Source: Moorena sp. SIO1G6 (GTDB taxonomy: Bacteria; Cyanobacteriota; Cyanobacteriia; Cyanobacteriales; Coleofasciculaceae). Taken from it: a stretch of 52,766 nt of DNA. Positions 1,846 through 18,329 of the stretch are shown here, in pieces (position 1 is the first letter of the stretch; every line of letters starts with the position of its first letter). Where the stretch lies: contig NZ_JAAHFZ010000014.1 in assembly GCF_010672795.1 (NCBI RefSeq), forward strand, positions 1 through 52,766. Reading direction: 5' to 3'. The notes beneath the pieces were generated by a model that was not told the origin of the DNA, did no database searches, and saw only the letters and a program-made list of their open reading frames with translations. The translations under genes and the position numbers were made by a program.

Positions 1846-3903
1846 GTGGAAAAGGGAACACTAATCGAATTTCGCTTACAAGGAGAACGCCATCTCGCTG
1901 TTGTCGATCGTCCAGAGGGCAAGAACCACTTGATTGCTTTGGATCAACGGGGGAAACTGCACAAGCTCCATCCTCGACAAGTCACCTACACAGTGGCAGA
2001 TTCTACTTATGAGCCATCACAAATACCAGAGTTTATTGCTCGAGTACAACCCTATCTAGACCCAGATAGCTTAGAATTAGCTTGGGAATTACTGGTGGAA
2101 GAAGGAGAGGCGGTTACCTGTGCTGACATGGCACAGTTATTATTTTCTGAGCAAAGTCCACCCCAGTGCTATGCGGCACACTGTATTCTGTTTGAAGACA
2201 AAATCTATTTTAAACAAAAAGCACAAACCTATGAACCCCGCTCCGCTAGCATGGTGGCTGAAATCAAGCATCAACTGGCAGCGGCTCAATCAAAGCACCA
2301 GGAACAAGAAGAATTTTTGAAGCGAGTACAGCAAAAGTTAGGGGGTGAGCAAGTAGAGTGGGTTGATAGCGATCGCACTCGCTTTGATGCTCTAGAACGG
2401 TTCGTTAGTGAACCAGATAAACCATCTCGTGCAGTTCAGGAAACTCTGGAAGCACTAAAACGCCCTCAAAACCCAGAAAATGCCTTCGATTTATTGATAA
2501 ATTTGGGTTTGTGGCGTCCTCACCAGAAGTACTTGCTGCGTCATAAAATCCCAACTCAATTTCGTCGTGAGGTACTCGAATTGACCCAGCAATACCTGGC
2601 AAATCCTCCTACTGACCCAGATTCAGATCGCTTGGATTTAACTCATCTGAAACTCTACACCATAGATGATGAAAGTACCCAAGAAATAGATGATGGTTTG
2701 AGTATAGAAGATCTAGAGGATGGCACTCAGCGTCTGTGGATTCACATCGCTGACCCAACCCGCTTGGTAATGCCAGGGGATAATCTTGACCTAGAAGCAC
2801 GACGGCGTAGTACCACCATATATCTACCCACGGGCATGATTCCCATGTTCCCATCGGAACTGGCAACTGGTCCAATGAGTTTGGTTCAAGGTCAAGTCTG
2901 TGGCGCACTCAGTTTTGGCGTGATCTTGGATCAAGATGGTGCCATCTATGACTATCAGATTCACCCCAGCCTGATTAAACCCACCTATCGCCTGACTTAT
3001 GAAGATGTAGATGAAATGTTGCAGTTAGGGGTACAGGCAGAAACAGAACTGTTTGCGATCGCTAACTTGGCTGTGCGTCGGCAAAAGTGGCGCAAGTCTC
3101 AGGGGGCGATTAGCATCCATATGCCAGAGTCGGTAATCAAGGTGGGAAATGATGACCAAATTACCATTGAGGTGTTAGAAGATTCACCATCACGGCAAAT
3201 GGTGGCAGAAATGATGATTCTGGCAGGTGAAGTGGCTGGACGCTATGGTCAAGCGCACCAAATTCCACTACCATTCCGAGGACAACCCCAGCCAGAACTT
3301 CCATCCCAAGAAGAACTGCTGCTATTGCCAGCCGGTCCAGTGCGGTTCTGTGCCATGCGTCGGTGTATGCCTAGAAGCGAAATGAGCATTACCCCAACAC
3401 GCCACGCTAGTTTGGCTTTGGAAACTTACACCCAGGTAACCTCTCCGATCCGCCGCTACACTGACTTAATGACTCATTTCCAGCTGAAAGCTCATCTACG
3501 GGGTGACCCCCTACCCTTTGAAGCTGAAGATTTGCTCGAAACGATGCAGAGTGTAACCAGAACAGCTAAGGATGCTAGTGAAGTAGAACGTGATACCAAC
3601 AAATATTGGGGATTGGAATATTTGCGGCGTAACCCGAATCAGGTTTGGCAAGTATTAGTACTCAGTTGGTGGCGAGAAAACGAGAATAAGGGCAACATTC
3701 TCCTAGAAGAGTTAGGTCTAGAATTGCCCATGCGTTTCCAGCGTTCGGTTCAATTAGGCGATCGCTTACACGTCAAAGTCAGTCATGCTGATCCCCGTAA
3801 AGAAGTTATTCATTTTCAAGAACTAGCGAACTCAGAGGCTCAGCTTCCTTTTAACTCAAAGCTAGAAGATGGCTCAGCTTCTGCTGTGAACAGATTCGCG
3901 TAA
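1846..3903 (+). CDS. rnb: RNB-family 3'-5' exoribonuclease (RNase II/R-like) with C-terminal S1-like region
   Basis: 685 aa. The RNB catalytic core motifs are present (YTIDDESTQEIDDGLS, HIADP, ...TSPIRRYTDLMTHFQL). The start appears to be GTG; the exact start is uncertain. Confidence 0.8.
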   Translation: MEKGTLIEFRLQGERHLAVVDRPEGKNHLIALDQRGKLHKLHPRQVTYTVADSTYEPSQIPEFIARVQPYLDPDSLELAWELLVEEGEAVTCADMAQLLFSEQSPPQCYAAHCILFEDKIYFKQKAQTYEPRSASMVAEIKHQLAAAQSKHQEQEEFLKRVQQKLGGEQVEWVDSDRTRFDALERFVSEPDKPSRAVQETLEALKRPQNPENAFDLLINLGLWRPHQKYLLRHKIPTQFRREVLELTQQYLANPPTDPDSDRLDLTHLKLYTIDDESTQEIDDGLSIEDLEDGTQRLWIHIADPTRLVMPGDNLDLEARRRSTTIYLPTGMIPMFPSELATGPMSLVQGQVCGALSFGVILDQDGAIYDYQIHPSLIKPTYRLTYEDVDEMLQLGVQAETELFAIANLAVRRQKWRKSQGAISIHMPESVIKVGNDDQITIEVLEDSPSRQMVAEMMILAGEVAGRYGQAHQIPLPFRGQPQPELPSQEELLLLPAGPVRFCAMRRCMPRSEMSITPTRHASLALETYTQVTSPIRRYTDLMTHFQLKAHLRGDPLPFEAEDLLETMQSVTRTAKDASEVERDTNKYWGLEYLRRNPNQVWQVLVLSWWRENENKGNILLEELGLELPMRFQRSVQLGDRLHVKVSHADPRKEVIHFQELANSEAQLPFNSKLEDGSASAVNRFA

Positions 3904-4080
3904 ATCTCTGTCCTTTTATAAAAATCCCCCAAAGCCGAAAACCCCGTGTCTAATGACCGGGGATGAAGGCTCACAGCGGCTTGACGCGCCTAGAAAAATA
4001 TTTCAGGAAAATCCGGAATTTTAGTCTGGATGTTGTAAAATAAGGGAGTGAACAGTTTAGGTCCCAGACGAAACCTTAGA

Positions 4081-4150
4081 ATAGGGTCGCCTTTATGGTT
4101 TGTCGGCTATGGAAAAAGGGTTAAAACTGTTGTTATAAGGCGACCCTATT
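4081..4150. repeat. Perfect 13-bp-stem hairpin (ATAGGGTCGCCTT...AAGGCGACCCTAT) with a ~44-nt conserved loop, 24 bp upstream of the tnpB start; candidate IS left-end subterminal hairpin
   Basis: Seen directly. The loop is nearly identical to the loop of the hairpin at 4960-5033, while the two stems differ in sequence but both pair perfectly (compensatory change). Confidence 0.6.
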
Positions 4151-4173
4151 CTTACGGTAACTTTAAGAAGCTG

Positions 4174-5520
4174 ATGATCATTTTAGAGTTCAAGGCGAAA
4201 GGAAAAAAACATCAATACTCTGGGATCAACGAGGCTATCCGGACAGTCCAGTTCATCCGTAATAGCTGCCTCAGGTATTGGATGGAAAATAAAGGGGTCA
4301 ACAAATTTGACCTTAATAAGTACAGTGCAGTCCTTGCTAAAAACTTTCCTTTTGCTAATGAATTAAACTCTACTGCTCGTCAGTCTAGTGCTGAAAGAGC
4401 ATGGTCATCAATTGTTCGATTCTTTGATAACTGCAAGAAAAAAGTACCTGGAAAGAAAGGTTTTCCTAAGTTCCAGAAAAACTGCCGCTCAGTGGAGTAT
4501 AAACAGTCTGGATGGAAGTTATCCCCTGACAAGAAGTCAATCACCTTTAGTGATAAAAAGGGTATTGGGAAGCTTAAGCTTAAAGGTACATGGGACTTGT
4601 GGCGCTTGGATAAAAAGGAAATAAAGCGAGTCCGTATAGTTCGCCGGGCTGATGGTTATTATGTCCAGTTTTGTGTTTCAGTTGATATCAAAGAGGAACT
4701 AGAGCCAAGTGGGACAGCTATCGGCTTGGATGTTGGACTAAAATATTTTTACACTGATTCCGCTGGAAAAACTGAACCAAATCCCTGCTTTTACAGAACG
4801 GGAGAAAAACGCCTTAAGTTCTACCAGCGTCGAGTTTCTCGCAAGAAGAAAGGCTCATCCAATCGAAATAAAGCAGTTAATAGACTAGGCAGACAGCACC
4901 TTAAGATAAGTAGGCAACGTGAAGAGAACGCCAAGAGACTGGGAACGAAGTTACCGTAAGAATAAAGAAGCCTTTATGGTTAGTCGGCTATGCATAAAAG
5001 GGTTAAATCTTTGTTATTAAGGCTTCTTTATTCTAAGGTTTCGTCTCCGGCGCGCTGCGTAATCTGTTCTAACGATCTGGTCGCCTAGGTCGACTTAAGA
5101 GCCAAGAACCTAGTAAAAAATCACTGCCTCGCTAAGTCTATTAATGATGCAGGTTGGTATCAGTTTAGGAAATGGATGGAGCACTTTGGCACCAAGTTCG
5201 GAAAGGTAACAGTTGCAGTAAATCCTGCATATACCAGCCAAAACTGTTCCAATTGTGGCGAAGAAGTTAAAAAGTCCCTATCAACTAGGACTCATACGTG
5301 CAAGTGTGGTTGTCAGTTAGATAGAGACCACAACGCCGCAATAAACATCCTTAAGAAAGCCTTGGGTACGGTGGGGCACACCGGAACCTGGATCTTAAAA
5401 GATCTAAACGCTTCAGGAGAATCGGCCTCTACTGTTCTTGGTTCCGGCCAGGTTCAGCAAGCTGGCTCGTTGAATGAAGAATCCCCGCGTATGCGCGACC
5501 GGGGAGTGTCAAAAAACTAG
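4174..5520 (+). pseudogene. tnpB: tnpB (IS605 OrfB / RNA-guided nuclease family) disrupted by a ~130-bp hairpin-containing insertion plus a small deletion
   Basis: The N-terminal part (4174-4959) begins MIILEFKAKGKKHQYSGINEAIRTVQFIRNSCLRYWMENKG, a typical cyanobacterial TnpB N-terminus. The C-terminal part (about 5090-5520, a different frame) reads VDLRAKNLVKNHCLAKSINDAGW...NPAYTSQNCSNCGEEV...CKCGCQLDRDHNAAINIL, i.e. the RuvC-II region, zinc finger and RuvC-III region. About 10-15 residues are missing between the two pieces. Confidence 0.75.
4960..5033. repeat. Second copy of the conserved-loop hairpin (15-bp perfect stem GAATAAAGAAGCCTT...AAGGCTTCTTTATTC) sitting inside the disrupted tnpB
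   Basis: Seen directly. The loop tatggttagtcggctatgcataaaagggttaaatctttgttatt compares with tatggtttgtcggctatggaaaaagggttaaaactgttgttat at 4094-4137. Confidence 0.6.
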
Positions 5521-5533
5521 AAAGCTTGCTTTG

Positions 5534-7108
5534 ATGTCTCGACATAAGTACAAGAGATTAAAACACCAAATCATCCGGGTACCGAGCCGTTGGTACTTCT
5601 GCCTATCTTTGGCTATTACCATCCTGCTGGGATGGCTTGGTGTAGCAGCAGCACAAGATAGTAACACGAATAATTTCACTAACCTGTCTACTATCTGGTT
5701 GTTAGTTTCATCTTTTCTAGTCTTTTTTATGAATGCTGGCTTTGCCATGTTAGAAGCCGGGTTATGTAGACGGAGAAATGCGACTAATGTCTTGGCTAAA
5801 AATTTGATAGTTTTCTGTATATCAGCCTTAGCCTTTTGGCTAGTTGGCTTTGGCTTAATGTTTGGTGATGGCATCACTTACAGTTGTGTTCCAGGAGAAA
5901 ATAATAGTTTAAGTTTAGTGGGTCAAAAGGGGTTGTTTTTTAATCTTCCCTTTCCCCAATTTGGAAATCTTGGTTTTCCAGAATCAGGATTTAATTGTCT
6001 CAATCAAGATTGGTCTAATCGCTCCTTTGCGGCTCTATTTTTATTTCAGTTAGTCTTTGCTGGAACTGCAGCCACTATTGTTTCAGGAGCTGTTGCTGAA
6101 CGGGTAAAATTCTGGGCATTTCTCCTATTTAGTTTTTTCCTGGTTGGTTTTATCTATCCCGTAACCGGTCACTGGGTTTGGGGACACTATGGTTGGCTAG
6201 CCAAGGCGCTAAAATTTCATGATTTTGCGGGTTCAACTGTAGTCCATAGTGTTGGTGGTATGGCTGGCTTGGTAGGGGCTTGGCTACTAAAGCCACGACA
6301 AGGTCGTTTTGGCTACAATTTAAGAACAGATAGATATGAAGGTCTCGAAACTGAAAAGTTCTCTGCCGATAATCTGGGTTTAGCCACCTTAGGCTGCTTA
6401 ATTCTTTGGCTGGGCTGGTTTGGTTTTAATGGTGGCTCAGCAAAGGATCTCGATTATGTAGCTAATACCATCACAACTACCATGATGGCAGCAGCAGCTG
6501 GTGGAATATCCAGCGTATTTTTTAGTCCAATTATCCTGGGAAAACCCAGTCTAGCCTCAATTATCAATGGCATTTTAGGTGGGTTGGTGGGAATTACAGC
6601 CTCAGCTGCTTTTGTAGATATCAAAAGTGCATTTATAATTGGCTCTATCAGCGGTATTTTTGTCCTTTTAGGCGAATATTTTCTACAAGTTTGGAAAATT
6701 GACGACCCCGTAGGTTCGATTCCTGTTCACCTTTTCTGTGGATTTTGGGGAACGATTGCCTTAGGAATCTTTAGTAGCAATAGTTCTCTGTTGTACTCGG
6801 AACTTGATGTATATGACGATCCATTATTACAAGTGTTGTGTCAGTTCTTAGGCTGGCTGATTATTATCATTGTAACAGCTCTATTGAGTTTATTAGGTTG
6901 GCTATTAGTTAGCCTAATTTTATATTATGCAAGCCATATCAATGAGCGGATTAGCGGCAAACAACGCCATAGGAAACAATTACGTCAAACCCAATATTTT
7001 CAATTGGGAGAATTTATCTTAACTATTTTTGAAATTGCTCGTCGAGGAATTAGGGTATCTTTGGAAGAAGAAATCAGTGGTAGCGATGGAGTTTTTTATA
7101 ATCCTTAG
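5534..7108 (+). CDS. amt: Ammonium transporter (Amt/MEP family)
   Basis: It has an N-terminal signal/TM segment and multiple TM segments. Amt signature stretches are present (FFMNAGFAMLEAG, LVGFGLMFG, VHSVGGMAGLVGAWLLKPR, LGWFGFNGGS). The chosen start is the ATG at 5534. Confidence 0.85.
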   Translation: MSRHKYKRLKHQIIRVPSRWYFCLSLAITILLGWLGVAAAQDSNTNNFTNLSTIWLLVSSFLVFFMNAGFAMLEAGLCRRRNATNVLAKNLIVFCISALAFWLVGFGLMFGDGITYSCVPGENNSLSLVGQKGLFFNLPFPQFGNLGFPESGFNCLNQDWSNRSFAALFLFQLVFAGTAATIVSGAVAERVKFWAFLLFSFFLVGFIYPVTGHWVWGHYGWLAKALKFHDFAGSTVVHSVGGMAGLVGAWLLKPRQGRFGYNLRTDRYEGLETEKFSADNLGLATLGCLILWLGWFGFNGGSAKDLDYVANTITTTMMAAAAGGISSVFFSPIILGKPSLASIINGILGGLVGITASAAFVDIKSAFIIGSISGIFVLLGEYFLQVWKIDDPVGSIPVHLFCGFWGTIALGIFSSNSSLLYSELDVYDDPLLQVLCQFLGWLIIIIVTALLSLLGWLLVSLILYYASHINERISGKQRHRKQLRQTQYFQLGEFILTIFEIARRGIRVSLEEEISGSDGVFYNP

Positions 7109-16167: not shown

Positions 16168-16641
16168 ATGAATACAACTGAGCGTAAAACAGAGAAGAAA
16201 ATGGAAGTGCCTAGAACAACTAGTGAAGTGATTCGCATCAAGCCCCAACAGTTTATTCATGTGCTAGACAACAATACTGGTGTTACGCGACTGGAGGTTG
16301 GTCCTCAAACCATTACCCTTCGGGATCACGAGCGGCTGATCTTAAAACCTGAACCGATGATTATTGTGCCGCCTCGATATTATTGTGTGGTGGCTAATCC
16401 ATTACTCCGGGATGAAGACGGTCAACCCATTGCTGATCAGCATGGTCAAATTCGACTGCGCTACGGTGATCTGGAAATTCGTTTCGCGCAAGATCCGTTT
16501 CCCCTTTATCCAAACGAGAAACTGGTAGGGGATTTGACACTCCCCGTTCTTCTAGGACGGGGAGTGTCAAAGGCAGAAAATATAGCCATTGAGTCTACAG
16601 GTCAGGCAACAGCAGAAGCAAGAGCTAAGGAATACTCTTAA
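16168..16641 (+). pseudogene. Major vault protein (MVP) homolog, N-terminal fragment (MVP repeat 1-2)
   Basis: IRIKPQQFIHVLDNNTGVTRLEVGPQTI...VPPRYYCVVANP...[27 protein letters not shown] aligns almost residue-for-residue with the N-terminus of eukaryotic MVP ([28 protein letters not shown]...VPPRHYCTVANP...[27 protein letters not shown]). The homology ends near 16533-16560, where the IS-associated palindrome begins. Confidence 0.7.
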
Positions 16642-18329
16642 ACCGTCATCAATCGGGATAAAACCGAATAAAACGGCCAAGGTGCATTTTATTGATGTCT
16701 GAGTGAGGAGCGGTCAAGTAGCAATTGGAGTCAAGCCTCCCGCTCATCTATCTAGACGTTCCTCACATCCCGGTGAGGAGTTCCTTAAAAGCTTGAGTTT
16801 TGGCATGCTTGCGGTCAAGCCATCCTAGCTTAACCGCGTCAGCTAAAGTCAAATCCATACCTTCTAAGAAACGCGCAGTACGACGCAACAATACTGCCTG
16901 CACTTCAACCCTAGTCATAAACCGGGAGATTCCTTGATCTGTACCACGAGCAAGGATATTCTTCGCAGCATTGTGATCAGCCTGCAACACGACCCCATTA
17001 AATCTGATAAAACTGTCCCCAATCCTTGCTCCCAATAAGGTGCCAGAAAAGGAGTCAATTTGCGACGTGTAGCTTGGCTGGACTTCTGTCACAACCGAAC
17101 CAGTCCAATTAGCCCATTTCTGCAAGGAGTACCGCATTTCTCCTTTCATCCAGCTATTCAACTTGCGAGACATAGCCTTTGACTGGCGTTTATTTTTGAT
17201 TGGTTGCGTTAAATCCTCAGCAAAAATTCTTAGAGATTCTCCTTTGAAGAGGGATTTAGAAGCAGCCCCTATAATCGCCCTCAACTCTGATTGATCTCTT
17301 CTGTAACGACTGTTTTCTGTTTTTCGACTCAGATTATTTTTCAGTATCCGAGCTGATTTAGCTGGATCTATTTTTTCTAGCTTCCTATGTATTGCCCAGA
17401 GCTTTCCTCTGTTCCGATTTTTGGCGCATATTCGATGGCCAAAAGGCCACGCTACGCGAACGGATTTTATGGTTGCTATTTTGCCCAGGTTCTTCCCGTG
17501 TGCCTGACCATCTGAATCATAAAAAGCCTCGGTGTATCCCTTGTCTACTCCTATCGCTCGACGTTCAGGAGGAATCTCAGCTGTCCCGTGATTAACCAAA
17601 AAATGAATCTCAAATCTTGCCAGTAGAGAGTTGTATATTAGTCTAATCTGTCCTTTAATATTTCGATTAGACCTAACTATTAGTTTGTTTCTTTTTCCTC
17701 TTCTGATTCCAGCTAATTCCAATTGATAAGTATAACGAGACAATCGTTTACACGAGTATCCTCCTTGTTGGTATACAACTTGATTCTTGACCCAAGAATG
17801 TCCTCTCTGAAACTCTTTCCTTACAAGTCTGTGCAATAGTGGATTATCCAGAAAAGCTGAAGTTTTGAGTTGCTTAGAGATATCCTTTCTGATCTTCTGG
17901 TTTTCCTTTCCAGGAAACCTCTTATAGATCTTTTTTATGACTGCCTCAATGGAAGCCGCTTGTTGAGCTGTGATAGTTTTAGCTACATCACTGACAGTCC
18001 ATTCCATTAACTTGGAAGGCAAGCCCAGGGACTCAGGCTTCCTGAAGTCCCTGACTTCTGGGTAGGCTTTTTTCCAGTCAAGTCCCCAATGACTTATACT
18101 ACCCAGCTTGTTGTAAGACTCAGACCTGACGACGCCTAGTTTTTTCATCGTAGACAACAGCTCAAGCTCAACCGACTTAGCTATCCCTACAACTGGGACG
18201 ACCTGAGTCGATATCTTCTTTACTGCGCCTACTTTCTTTTGCATCATCAACGGTGTGTACAGCTTTTGCTATATACTGCCATTATAGTCTAGCGCTATAA
18301 AATTGTCAATGTCCAGTTCGCACTATTAA
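16533..18329 (-). mobile_element. IS200/IS605-family TnpB-only element inserted in the MVP gene (the ends are approximate)
   Basis: tnpB lies on the minus strand. The 14-bp perfect palindrome TTTGACACTCCCCG..CGGGGAGTGTCAAA at 16533-16571 shares CGGGGAGTGTCAAA with the 3' end of the other TnpB element (5500-5513). MVP-homologous coding sequence resumes at about 18340. Confidence 0.5.
16763..18250 (-). CDS. tnpB: TnpB-like RNA-guided endonuclease / IS605 OrfB-family transposase accessory protein (long form, zinc-finger cysteines absent)
   Basis: 495 aa. A RuvC-like triad is spaced in the standard way (AIGVDKG ... RIFAEDLT ... VLQADHNAAKNIL). No Cys pairs lie between RuvC-II and RuvC-III. No tnpA is present. 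Confidence 0.7.
   Translation of the reverse strand: MMMQKKVGAVKKISTQVVPVVGIAKSVELELLSTMKKLGVVRSESYNKLGSISHWGLDWKKAYPEVRDFRKPESLGLPSKLMEWTVSDVAKTITAQQAASIEAVIKKIYKRFPGKENQKIRKDISKQLKTSAFLDNPLLHRLVRKEFQRGHSWVKNQVVYQQGGYSCKRLSRYTYQLELAGIRRGKRNKLIVRSNRNIKGQIRLIYNSLLARFEIHFLVNHGTAEIPPERRAIGVDKGYTEAFYDSDGQAHGKNLGKIATIKSVRVAWPFGHRICAKNRNRGKLWAIHRKLEKIDPAKSARILKNNLSRKTENSRYRRDQSELRAIIGAASKSLFKGESLRIFAEDLTQPIKNKRQSKAMSRKLNSWMKGEMRYSLQKWANWTGSVVTEVQPSYTSQIDSFSGTLLGARIGDSFIRFNGVVLQADHNAAKNILARGTDQGISRFMTRVEVQAVLLRRTARFLEGMDLTLADAVKLGWLDRKHAKTQAFKELLTGM

Follow-up and report, generated by a model that had tools for sequence, protein, structure and literature searches.

Background

The Correia elements of Neisseria and the cyanobacterial element Nezha are bacterial MITEs (miniature inverted-repeat transposable elements) that take the form of long hairpins, and the small inversions known from chloroplast hairpins are cases in which a hairpin loop has been inverted. 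The small dispersed repeats (SDR) of Nostoc punctiforme, 21-27 nt long, were reportedly found by Elhai et al. in 2008 to share a secondary structure with compensatory changes and to be nested in each other and in mini-transposons. MITEs of Thiomargarita sit in genes and introns (PMC4853749). In REPINs, compensatory changes in the stem are common, and selection for a foldable DNA intermediate has been proposed (PMC3116915). The serine recombinase of the IS607 family transposes with a GG overlap dinucleotide (PMC4058570), and the elements of this family are without terminal inverted repeats (PMC6188088). Template switching between short inverted repeats makes the arms alike and inverts the spacer (PMC8604942, PMC8794818). 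Here we analyze two hairpins in and near a disrupted tnpB gene of Moorena sp. SIO1G6, in a stretch of 52,766 nt (contig NZ_JAAHFZ010000014.1, positions 1 to 52,766) that in its full length is referred to as the window. We conclude, with a probability of roughly three in four, that both hairpins are copies of one small non-coding family of mobile DNA repeats, MITE-like, about 97-106 bp long and abundant in Moorena, and that the covariation of their stems arose at the DNA level.

The element is akin to a bacterial hairpin MITE or a REPIN, and is best filed there; it belongs to no known RNA family and not to the class of IS200/IS605 end hairpins. Like the hairpin MITEs, it is small, non-coding and present in high copy number, with imperfectly inverted ends, a short duplication at most target sites and empty sites, and it enters genes and other mobile elements and folds into a large hairpin. 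Unlike them, it has ends that are loosely inverted (about 7 of 10 positions plus GG), a long perfect stem that is internal and variable, a conserved loop that occurs in both orientations, a GG/CC flank in place of TA, and no known parent insertion sequence. With the SDR of Nostoc punctiforme, which are likewise cyanobacterial mini-repeats, it has in common a structure shared among copies, compensatory changes and nesting; it differs from them by its length of about 100 nt and its distinct arms and loop. The finding is mostly accounted for by ordinary mobile DNA. More unusual are that the two arms are asymmetric, that the perfect stem is internal and free in sequence, that the conserved loop flip-flops, that GG is constant at the junction and that other mobile elements are struck repeatedly.

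Two hairpin elements in one insertion sequence

The initial annotation had placed two hairpins with similar loops in this region, and both were recovered. The hairpin of copy 1 (4078..4152, forward strand) has a perfect 16-bp stem, AGAATAGGGTCGCCTT/AAGGCGACCCTATTCT (4078-4093 / 4137-4152), around a 43-nt loop (4094-4136), and the hairpin of copy 2 (4959..5034, forward strand) has a perfect 16-bp stem, AGAATAAAGAAGCCTT/AAGGCTTCTTTATTCT (4959-4974 / 5019-5034), around a 44-nt loop (4975-5018). The loops differ at 6 of 45 aligned columns, corresponding to an identity of about 87%. The stems had been described as 13 or 15 bp long and their outer parts as unrelated in sequence; both are 16 bp, and they are identical at 12 of 16 positions (AGAATA....GCCTT), the four central positions that differ (GGGTC vs AAGAA) all being compensated. 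The folding check that had been suggested came out positive for both hairpins, which fold better than shuffled sequences as DNA (z from -2.5 to -4.4) and as RNA (z from -2.8 to -6.9), with predicted RNA hairpins of -33 to -37 kcal/mol. A conserved sub-hairpin within the loop is not supported, the candidate TATG/CATA pairing being missing in copy 1 and in many of the others. In the 52.8 kb, there are exactly two instances of the loop motif TATGGTTNGTCGGCTATG, compared to an expectation of 0.13, and a covariance model built from family members and run over the whole window with filters off retrieved the two copies only (97 and 89 bits; next match 15 bits).

The two copies also share sequence outside the stems, in opposite orientation: AGACGAAACCTTAGAATA is located at 4066-4083 (+) and 5029-5046 (-), and TATTCTTACGGTAACTT at 4147-4163 (+) and 4948-4964 (-). 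This extends the repeat unit to about 103-106 nt, and relative to the arms the loop has opposite orientations in the two copies. Copy 1 of the element (4064..4166, forward strand) consists of arm A (CCAGACGAAACCTTAG), stem, loop, stem' and arm B' (CTTACGGTAACTTTAA), and copy 2 (4943..5048, forward strand, 106 nt) of arm B (GAACGAAGTTACCGTAAG), stem, loop, stem' and arm A' (CTAAGGTTTCGTCTCC). In copy 2, the arms are inverted relative to copy 1, with the loop in the same orientation.

Copy 1 is positioned in the leader between the left-end hairpin of the insertion sequence (3942-3962) and the tnpB start codon, and copy 2 is positioned at codon 257 of tnpB. The gene is thereby divided into an N-terminal part at 4174..4942 (forward strand; codons 1-256 and the first base of codon 257) and a C-terminal part at 5051..5520 (forward strand) with RuvC-II, the zinc finger and RuvC-III. 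Removal in silico of positions 4943-5050, which are the 106-nt element and a duplicated GG (108 nt), yielded a single tnpB frame of 412 codons that matches Pfam OrfB_IS605 (1.4e-19) and the Cas12f1-like TNB domain (5.3e-21). The break that had been noted in tnpB thus lies at copy 2, although it stems from a 108-nt insertion and not from a rearrangement with a frame-shifted C-terminal part. Two origins had been offered for it; the chimera of defective copies falls with the restored frame, whereas the strike by a hairpin MITE holds. An in-frame read-through of copy 2 was considered and rejected, since the inserted 108 nt, although divisible by 3, contain stop codons, and copies at the same site elsewhere measure 105-107 nt. 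The C-terminal part has an in-frame TAG at 5086-5088, and the window TnpB has Val at the conserved Glu, the presumed catalytic residue, of a motif that reads AYEDL in its relatives. The tnpB in the window is therefore a pseudogene even without copy 2.

Intact relatives had been proposed as a comparison, with the expectation of hairpins at both positions; instead, they read straight through. The copy 1 site is empty in the retrieved loci L006, L040 and L025, where the sequence AGGTC|GAA(A/G)CTGATG is uninterrupted. The copy 2 site is empty in L006, L008, L025, L036, L048, L074 and L092, many of which read ..AAGAGACTGG|C.., and it is filled in L052, L100, L086, L112 and L040. The duplicated GG at 5049..5050 (forward strand; target CTGG^CGCGC) is also present at 4941-4942, and the empty paralogous sites contain a single GCCAG/CTGGC. 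Since the relatives of tnpB read through both positions, the hairpins are guests and not parts of the insertion sequence.

The two copies in the window differ in stem allele, end variant and arm orientation, and each has its nearest relatives elsewhere. Among the matches listed, the closest relative of copy 1 is in L012 (98% over 4066-4169), and the hairpin of copy 2 is 98.7% identical to those in L049, L080 and L083. This shows that two hairpin elements were inserted independently into one tnpB-only insertion sequence of the IS200/IS605 family.

This insertion sequence (3926..5512, forward strand; 1587 nt including both nested elements) is situated between an RNase II-like gene and an ammonium-transporter (amt) gene. 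Its ends were put at about 3926 and 5512 because the orthologous RNase II-amt spacer of M. bouillonii PNG and M. producens JHB, 148-161 nt long, lacks the insertion sequence; homology to the window ends at ...CCTTTTATAA (3925) and restarts at AAAACTAGAAAGC (5513). The right end was placed by this empty site and by the terminal motif, a hairpin CCCCGCGTATGCGCGACCGGGG (CCCCGCG...CGGGG, 5483-5504) followed by AGTGTCAA, which together occupy 5483..5512 on the forward strand. The true left-end hairpin, CCCCGTGTCTAATGACCGGGG followed by ATGAAGGC, is found at 3942..3962 on the same strand and is conserved in related elements (in L040 as CCCCGTGTCTTTAGACCGGGGATGAAAGC). The 1630-nt gap between the RNase II-like and amt genes is also seen in three sister assemblies, and a base-by-base comparison of L120 and L121 with the window over 3800-5700 identified the same insertion sequence and both hairpin copies, with 3 substitutions, none of them in the hairpin copies. 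PNG (L123:7055-7215) and JHB (L124:7055-7205) contain a spacer of about 110 nt, in part made up of GTGTTATTTAA(C/T)A units in tandem, that is wholly missing from the window at 3926; the insertion was therefore tied to a small deletion or replacement.

A hairpin-repeat family in Moorena

We scanned one genome per species with the loop pattern TTTATGGTTNGTCGGCTATG, which gives lower bounds for the copy numbers and, being a retrieval by loop, biases the sample. At least 119 loci matched the pattern, of which at least 117 belonged to Moorena, in five species (M. producens 3L, M. bouillonii PNG and three metagenome-assembled genomes) and 2 were chance matches without stem or arms. Among the matches listed, real hits were found in Moorena only, and viral contigs gave a single chance match with neither stem nor arms. 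Additional copies with diverged loops were observed in the same loci, in JHB and just beyond the window. A genome-wide loop search had been recommended for finding further copies; more than 100 exist, and a simple local duplication is thereby excluded. The 125 arm-to-arm candidates among the matches listed were reduced to 54 flank classes, which include a few false positives, and to approximately 45 distinct sites. Filled and empty sites could be compared in 21 cases, in addition to the tnpB site, the open reading frame (ORF) of a group II intron and the copy 1 site.

The element is 97-106 nt in size and has no coding capacity. Arm A (GGAGACGAAACCTTAG) and arm B (GG-TYA-GAAGTTACCGYAAG) are different and imperfectly complementary; by inspection, GGAGACGAAACC and GGTCAGAAGTTACC match at about 7 of 10 terminal positions and at GG, and the two arms are distinct in all copies. 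In each real copy, an A arm is combined with a B arm, and no A..A pair occurs among the matches listed. Between the arms is a perfect stem of 16 bp, in which the inner GCCTT is fixed and the outer 9-11 bp vary between copies, and a loop of about 44 nt that is conserved across the family. The suggestion of a MITE derived from IS200/605 hairpins was thus correct as to the MITE, but not as to the derivation, since no end hairpins are shared and the element occupies many unrelated sites. No description of the family was found in the literature on Moorea/Moorena repeats and MITEs and on cyanobacterial MITEs, of which our coverage was incomplete, and the family is apparently undescribed so far.

Other small palindromic repeats are nested inside the loop of the element (e.g. 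in L009, L014, L020, L021, L032, L045, L074, L079 and L106) or between the loop and the 3' stem (L004, L015, L019, L026, L031, L085 and L095). One of these units, AGGTGCG...GAATTTAATTC...CGCACCT, is inserted at AAAAG^GGTTAAA, and another is a GCGTGATTTGCGCGGTCTTGGGGGTTTCCCCC... unit. The intergenic DNA of Moorena is a mosaic of such nested mini-repeats. At L125:2696-2722, the sequence GAAGTTACCCTAAGATAGGGTAACTTC is a palindrome of about 27 nt in which a B arm is followed by its own complement and both stem and loop are lacking, and may be the remnant of a collapsed element.

Stem covariation and loop orientation

Covariation was quantified in a set of 48 distinct hairpins (768 cells), with 500 shuffles and slid-partner columns as controls. 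Changes on both sides were observed at 11 of the 16 stem pairs. The fraction of pairing cells was 91.4%, as compared to 76.7% in the shuffles, none of which reached the observed value, and 32-56% with a slid partner column. This confirms a recurrent unit with real stem covariation, as originally proposed. The further claim, that covariation means that the structure itself is selected, is not established, given Watson-Crick pairs only, few single mismatches and a flipping loop. One-sided cells of the G-U type numbered 5 of 768, against 115 double changes. A perfect 16-bp stem was present in 71 of the 101 arm-defined copies among the matches listed, and the 1292 pairs of the near-perfect copies contained 7 mismatches besides a constant T-T, two of the seven being G-T.

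The imperfect copies are block chimeras of two alleles. In the orthologous loci L001 and L012, with flanks that are 98% identical, the whole stem arm TTAGAATAGGGTCGCC has been swapped for the family allele TGATTAATAGTGGAGCC in one species, by which a perfect stem became a chimera. This arm swap is evidence for patch-wise exchange between copies. In another seven loci (L024, L027, L087, L108, L014, L020 and L093), the outer half of the left stem arm (GCAAAAATAA) is replaced by an unrelated palindrome, CCAGCGAGCAATCCCTCGCTGG, and the other arm is the original one.

With the loop oriented as '+', the arms were arranged as A..B in 55 copies and as B..A in 44 (44/99 inverted), again among the matches listed. 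A single stem allele may occur in both orientations, such as AGAATAAAGAA with 2 '+' and 3 '-' copies, and loop flipping is therefore recurrent. The flip is, however, not a coin-toss at each insertion, as eight near-identical copies at a single type of site agree in their loop orientation. Both loop orientations are found at the same kind of site.

The Watson-Crick-only compensation, the near absence of single mismatches and intermediates, and the flipping spacer are the reasons for which we favor homogenization of the arms at the DNA level, that is, palindromic DNA kept perfect by arm-to-arm templating, over a selected RNA. The stems would be kept perfect and yet variable by the copying of one arm from the other, either through template switching during replication or through gene conversion between the inverted arms, and the loop flip would be a product of the same process. 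The hairpin may also be needed for mobilization; a functional RNA would not be required. As in the correction of quasipalindromes by template switching (PMC8604942, PMC8794818), arms of inverted repeats are kept or made complementary and the spacer flips, which mimics 'compensatory' evolution. The published cases are single loci, whereas the process would here have acted on each of more than 100 mobile copies.

Insertion junctions and a putative mobilizing enzyme

Comparison of filled and empty sites showed that CC/GG occurs once where the element is absent and twice where it is present. GG/CC is duplicated at most sites, among them the tnpB codon site, two unique sites, GGGGGTTTCCCCC-type repeats, the left-end hairpin foot and the 3' site of tnpB; one of the filled/empty cases duplicates 3 nt. 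Of the 54 deduplicated flank classes, a few false positives included, 37-38 have a C adjoining the element on its left and 35-36 have one on its right. The constant GG is either a strict-GG target duplication of 2 bp or the mark of a recombinase with a fixed GG as its crossover site.

We suggest that the element would move by cut-or-copy crossing over at GG, the dinucleotide coming from a 2-bp target duplication or from the GG overlap of an IS607-like serine recombinase. The putative mobilizing enzyme would act in trans and would favor targets that resemble the element's own ends, such as the foot GGGGATGAA in left-end hairpins of the IS605 type or, in tnpB and the reverse-transcriptase gene of a group II intron, the motif GCCAAGA-N3-4-TGG. 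As in IS607 (PMC4058570, PMC6188088), the inserted element has GG on either side and the empty site has a single GG, and removal in silico of the element with one GG restores the frame of the host gene. The difference is that IS607 has neither terminal inverted repeats nor an internal hairpin, and that no matching ends were seen on the IS607-like copies in L082 and L124. The GG would fit a DDE enzyme that simply duplicates 2 bp of the target as well as it fits an overlap of the IS607 type.

Genes for IS607-type serine-recombinase TnpA adjoin tnpB in M. producens 3L and JHB (L082 at about 3295-3801 on the forward strand, or 4200-4706 in reverse-complement coordinates, and L124:2443-3060). A search for inward-facing A and B arms 0.3-4 kb apart gave two B..B pairs only (L063 and L051), and the arms in L063 belong to separate small copies. 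Probing with a sequence of IS608 TnpA, a Y1 transposase, identified ordinary IS200/605 tnpA genes only (in L017, L073 and L008) and no RAYT-like arrangement among the loci. At L017:116-499 and L073:878-1262 (also in L098), a copy of the element lies between the 3' end of a Y1 tnpA and a CCCCGCG...CGGGG end hairpin.

Target sites and spread of the element

Approximately one third of the distinct sites are inside sequence of the IS200/IS605 type. The 3' foot of the left-end hairpin, just before GGATGAA, is a target in at least three families of insertion sequences and is filled in L006, L008, L036, L048, L074, L111 and L112. In the window, this foot (3958-3962; CGGG^G GATGAA) is an unoccupied favorite target. 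A second unoccupied hot-spot, GGTACGGTGGGGCACAC (5365..5381, forward strand), corresponds to the GGTGGGG^CAC found near the tnpB 3' end in other copies, and is filled in L009, L032, L035, L043, L051, L064, L094 and L104. In the four copies outside the window with an element at the tnpB codon that could be assessed (L052, L100, L086 and L112), the ORFs are otherwise intact. In L040 (1733-5451), tnpB is interrupted by the hairpin element at its usual codon and, 8 nt away, by a group II intron, in a triple nesting of mobile elements.

In the reverse-transcriptase ORF of a group II intron (..IAKKNG^GTRMLK..), the element is inserted at the same codon in three Moorena species (L040:716-823, L055:1127-1234 and L091:238-345; also at the end of L090). 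The three elements are identical over the 97 nt from arm to arm, compared to 82-89% identity for the intron copies. Removal of 107 nt restores the ORF in each of the three, and an empty site is located in L082 near 1373. The motif GCCAAGA-N3-4-TGG^ is common to the hot-spots in tnpB and in the intron, and arm A (CCGGAGACGAAACC) is like the left-end motif CCGGGGATGAAAGC at 11 of 14 positions, both judged by inspection and the former without statistics. The variable stem was rejected as a target guide, since the same tnpB site has at least four stem alleles (window/L052/L100, L086, L112 and L040).

A TnpB tree of 12 copies includes four that are filled (window, L052, L100 and L086), and these are scattered among the empty ones. 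The element in the window is 95.7% identical to that in L052/L100, whereas the surrounding tnpB sequences are 75-78% identical; given these identities and the scattered filled sites, co-divergence of the element with its host tnpB was rejected for the window. Eight copies at the left-end foot (L006, L008, L011, L036, L048, L060, L109 and L119; CGGG^GGGATGAAAG) are 94-100% identical with a mean of 98.1%, and the adjacent 420 nt of their hosts are 50-83% identical with a mean of 62.6%. In the comparison of the left-end feet, each site type has its own stem allele. The simplest reading is a recent burst with a strong target preference.

Weighing the evidence and the alternatives

Several observations weigh against the conclusion that the hairpins form an ordinary family of mobile repeats with stems maintained at the DNA level. 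The identity between copies at homologous sites far exceeds that between their hosts (98% vs 63%), which plain random transposition fails to explain. The GG/CC duplication is lacking at copy 1, and GG/CC flanks are also missing from a minority of the other copies, with none at L001/L012 and L101. No A..B arm pair surrounds an ORF in about 0.9 Mb of Moorena loci, and neither an autonomous partner nor a transposase was found there. No A or B arms are present near the IS607-type tnpA genes in L082 and L124, and the imperfect inverted ends of the element clash with the description of IS607 (PMC6188088). Selection for a hairpin needed in mobilization would yield the same covariation as mechanical homogenization, and the two are inseparable here. 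Finally, a role as RNA is unlikely, although conceivable.

One alternative is that the element is a site-specific 'parasite of parasites', a tentative reading to which we give low odds. The hairpin would recombine at a GG core and home into the left-end foot, one tnpB codon and one codon of the intron reverse transcriptase, with a homing-like or recombinase-driven spread between diverged paralogous sites and perhaps a scarless removal that keeps the genes usable. It is left open by the identities of the copies (96-100%) relative to their hosts (63-89%), by the stem alleles specific to site types, and by interrupted ORFs that are otherwise intact in several lineages.

It is unlikely that the repeats are REPIN-like elements moved as single-stranded DNA hairpins by a domesticated Y1 (RAYT-type) HUH endonuclease, with compensation due to selection for a foldable intermediate. 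There are similarities to REPINs (PMC3116915), which are also hairpins of about 100 nt with conserved ends, a variable middle paired through compensatory changes and a population of variants within the genome, and the element is often found at the foot of other DNA hairpins. However, arms A and B are not REP palindromes and by inspection have no internal palindrome, and REPINs have neither the GG duplication nor a conserved 44-nt loop. REPINs are also mostly extragenic, whereas the hairpin element often enters ORFs and the hairpins of insertion sequences. Among the retrieved loci, to which the search was confined, no RAYT gene with copies on its flanks was seen, no genome-wide search being made.

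We consider it improbable that the hairpins are a structured RNA, either cis-regulatory or a small RNA, with stems kept by selection on RNA folding. The strong covariation, the conserved loop and the stable predicted RNA hairpins (z down to -6.9) are what such an RNA would display. Yet no match was found in Rfam, neither at gathering thresholds over the whole window nor at E<=10 in 3850-5650, apart from one chance match to a long non-coding RNA elsewhere in that region. The compensation is by Watson-Crick pairs only, with 5 cells of the G-U type in 768, and a terminator-like T-run is absent. The loop is reverse-complemented relative to the arms in about 40% of the copies, with both orientations at the same kind of site, and no single RNA sequence is therefore preserved. 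The copies also lie inside ORFs of pseudogenized mobile elements and are nested in one another. Of the explanations for the covariation, that by an RNA is the weakest. An integron attC site was likewise rejected by inspection, as there are no RYYYAAC/GTTRRRY core sites.

The initial annotation had favored subterminal hairpins of the kind recognized by the IS200/IS605 TnpA, with copy 1 as the left end, or a PATE-like MITE of them, which we regard as very improbable. The association with tnpB elements is shared with such hairpins and with the MITEs of PATE type derived from them: the host is a tnpB element of the IS200/IS605 family, copy 1 is upstream of tnpB, arm A resembles the left-end motif, and there are Y1 tnpA genes in Moorena, one adjoining a copy (L017, L073). 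The host, however, has its own genuine CCCCG...CGGGG hairpins at 3942-3962 and 5483-5504, close to the ends of the insertion sequence, with which the 16-bp hairpins share nothing in sequence or position, and relatives have no hairpin at the position of copy 1 (L006, L040 and L025) or of copy 2 (L006, L008, L025, L036, L048 and L074). The element is instead a guest in the insertion sequence; it is one long hairpin with no CCCCG/CGGGG motifs and no TCAA-type end, it duplicates GG where IS200/IS605 inserts without duplication, and it is present in many unrelated places, including the ORF of a group II intron. That the pair arose by local duplication, or as a chimera of two defective copies of tnpB, without any mobile hairpin, would suit a 52.8-kb window with only two copies, both in one insertion sequence, but is virtually precluded by the more than 100 copies elsewhere, the continuous tnpB frame obtained on removal of copy 2, and the unlike stem alleles, end variants and orientations of the two copies.

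A second TnpB-associated locus in the window

A Major-Vault-Protein-like gene (Pfam Vault_2, 1e-26) starts at 16168 in the segment 16168-18530 of the window. A perfect palindrome of the right-end type, TTTGACACTCCCCGT...ACGGGGAGTGTCAAA, is located at 16533-16571 and is followed by a second TnpB-like ORF at 16763-18250 on the reverse strand. In the sister assembly L120, the alignment breaks exactly at the 16533-16571 palindrome, and about 1.8 kb of vault-domain coding sequence that is not in the window is found there. At this locus, a vault-protein gene of a kind rare in bacteria is polymorphic for a rearrangement associated with IS605.

Implications

For genome scans, the family is a caution that perfect, compensated stems in dispersed palindromic DNA repeats do not on their own prove a selected RNA structure; the flipping of the loops, together with the lack of wobble pairs and of single mismatches, speaks for a process at the DNA level. 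Moorena is a genus rich in natural products with genomes that are hard to assemble owing to such repeats, and the family can be used as a marker to type strains and to detect TnpB and intron genes that are broken. The site preference and the constant GG junction suggest a site-selective recombination activity, which may act as a brake on insertion sequences that carry TnpB, and they provide a lead to the enzyme.

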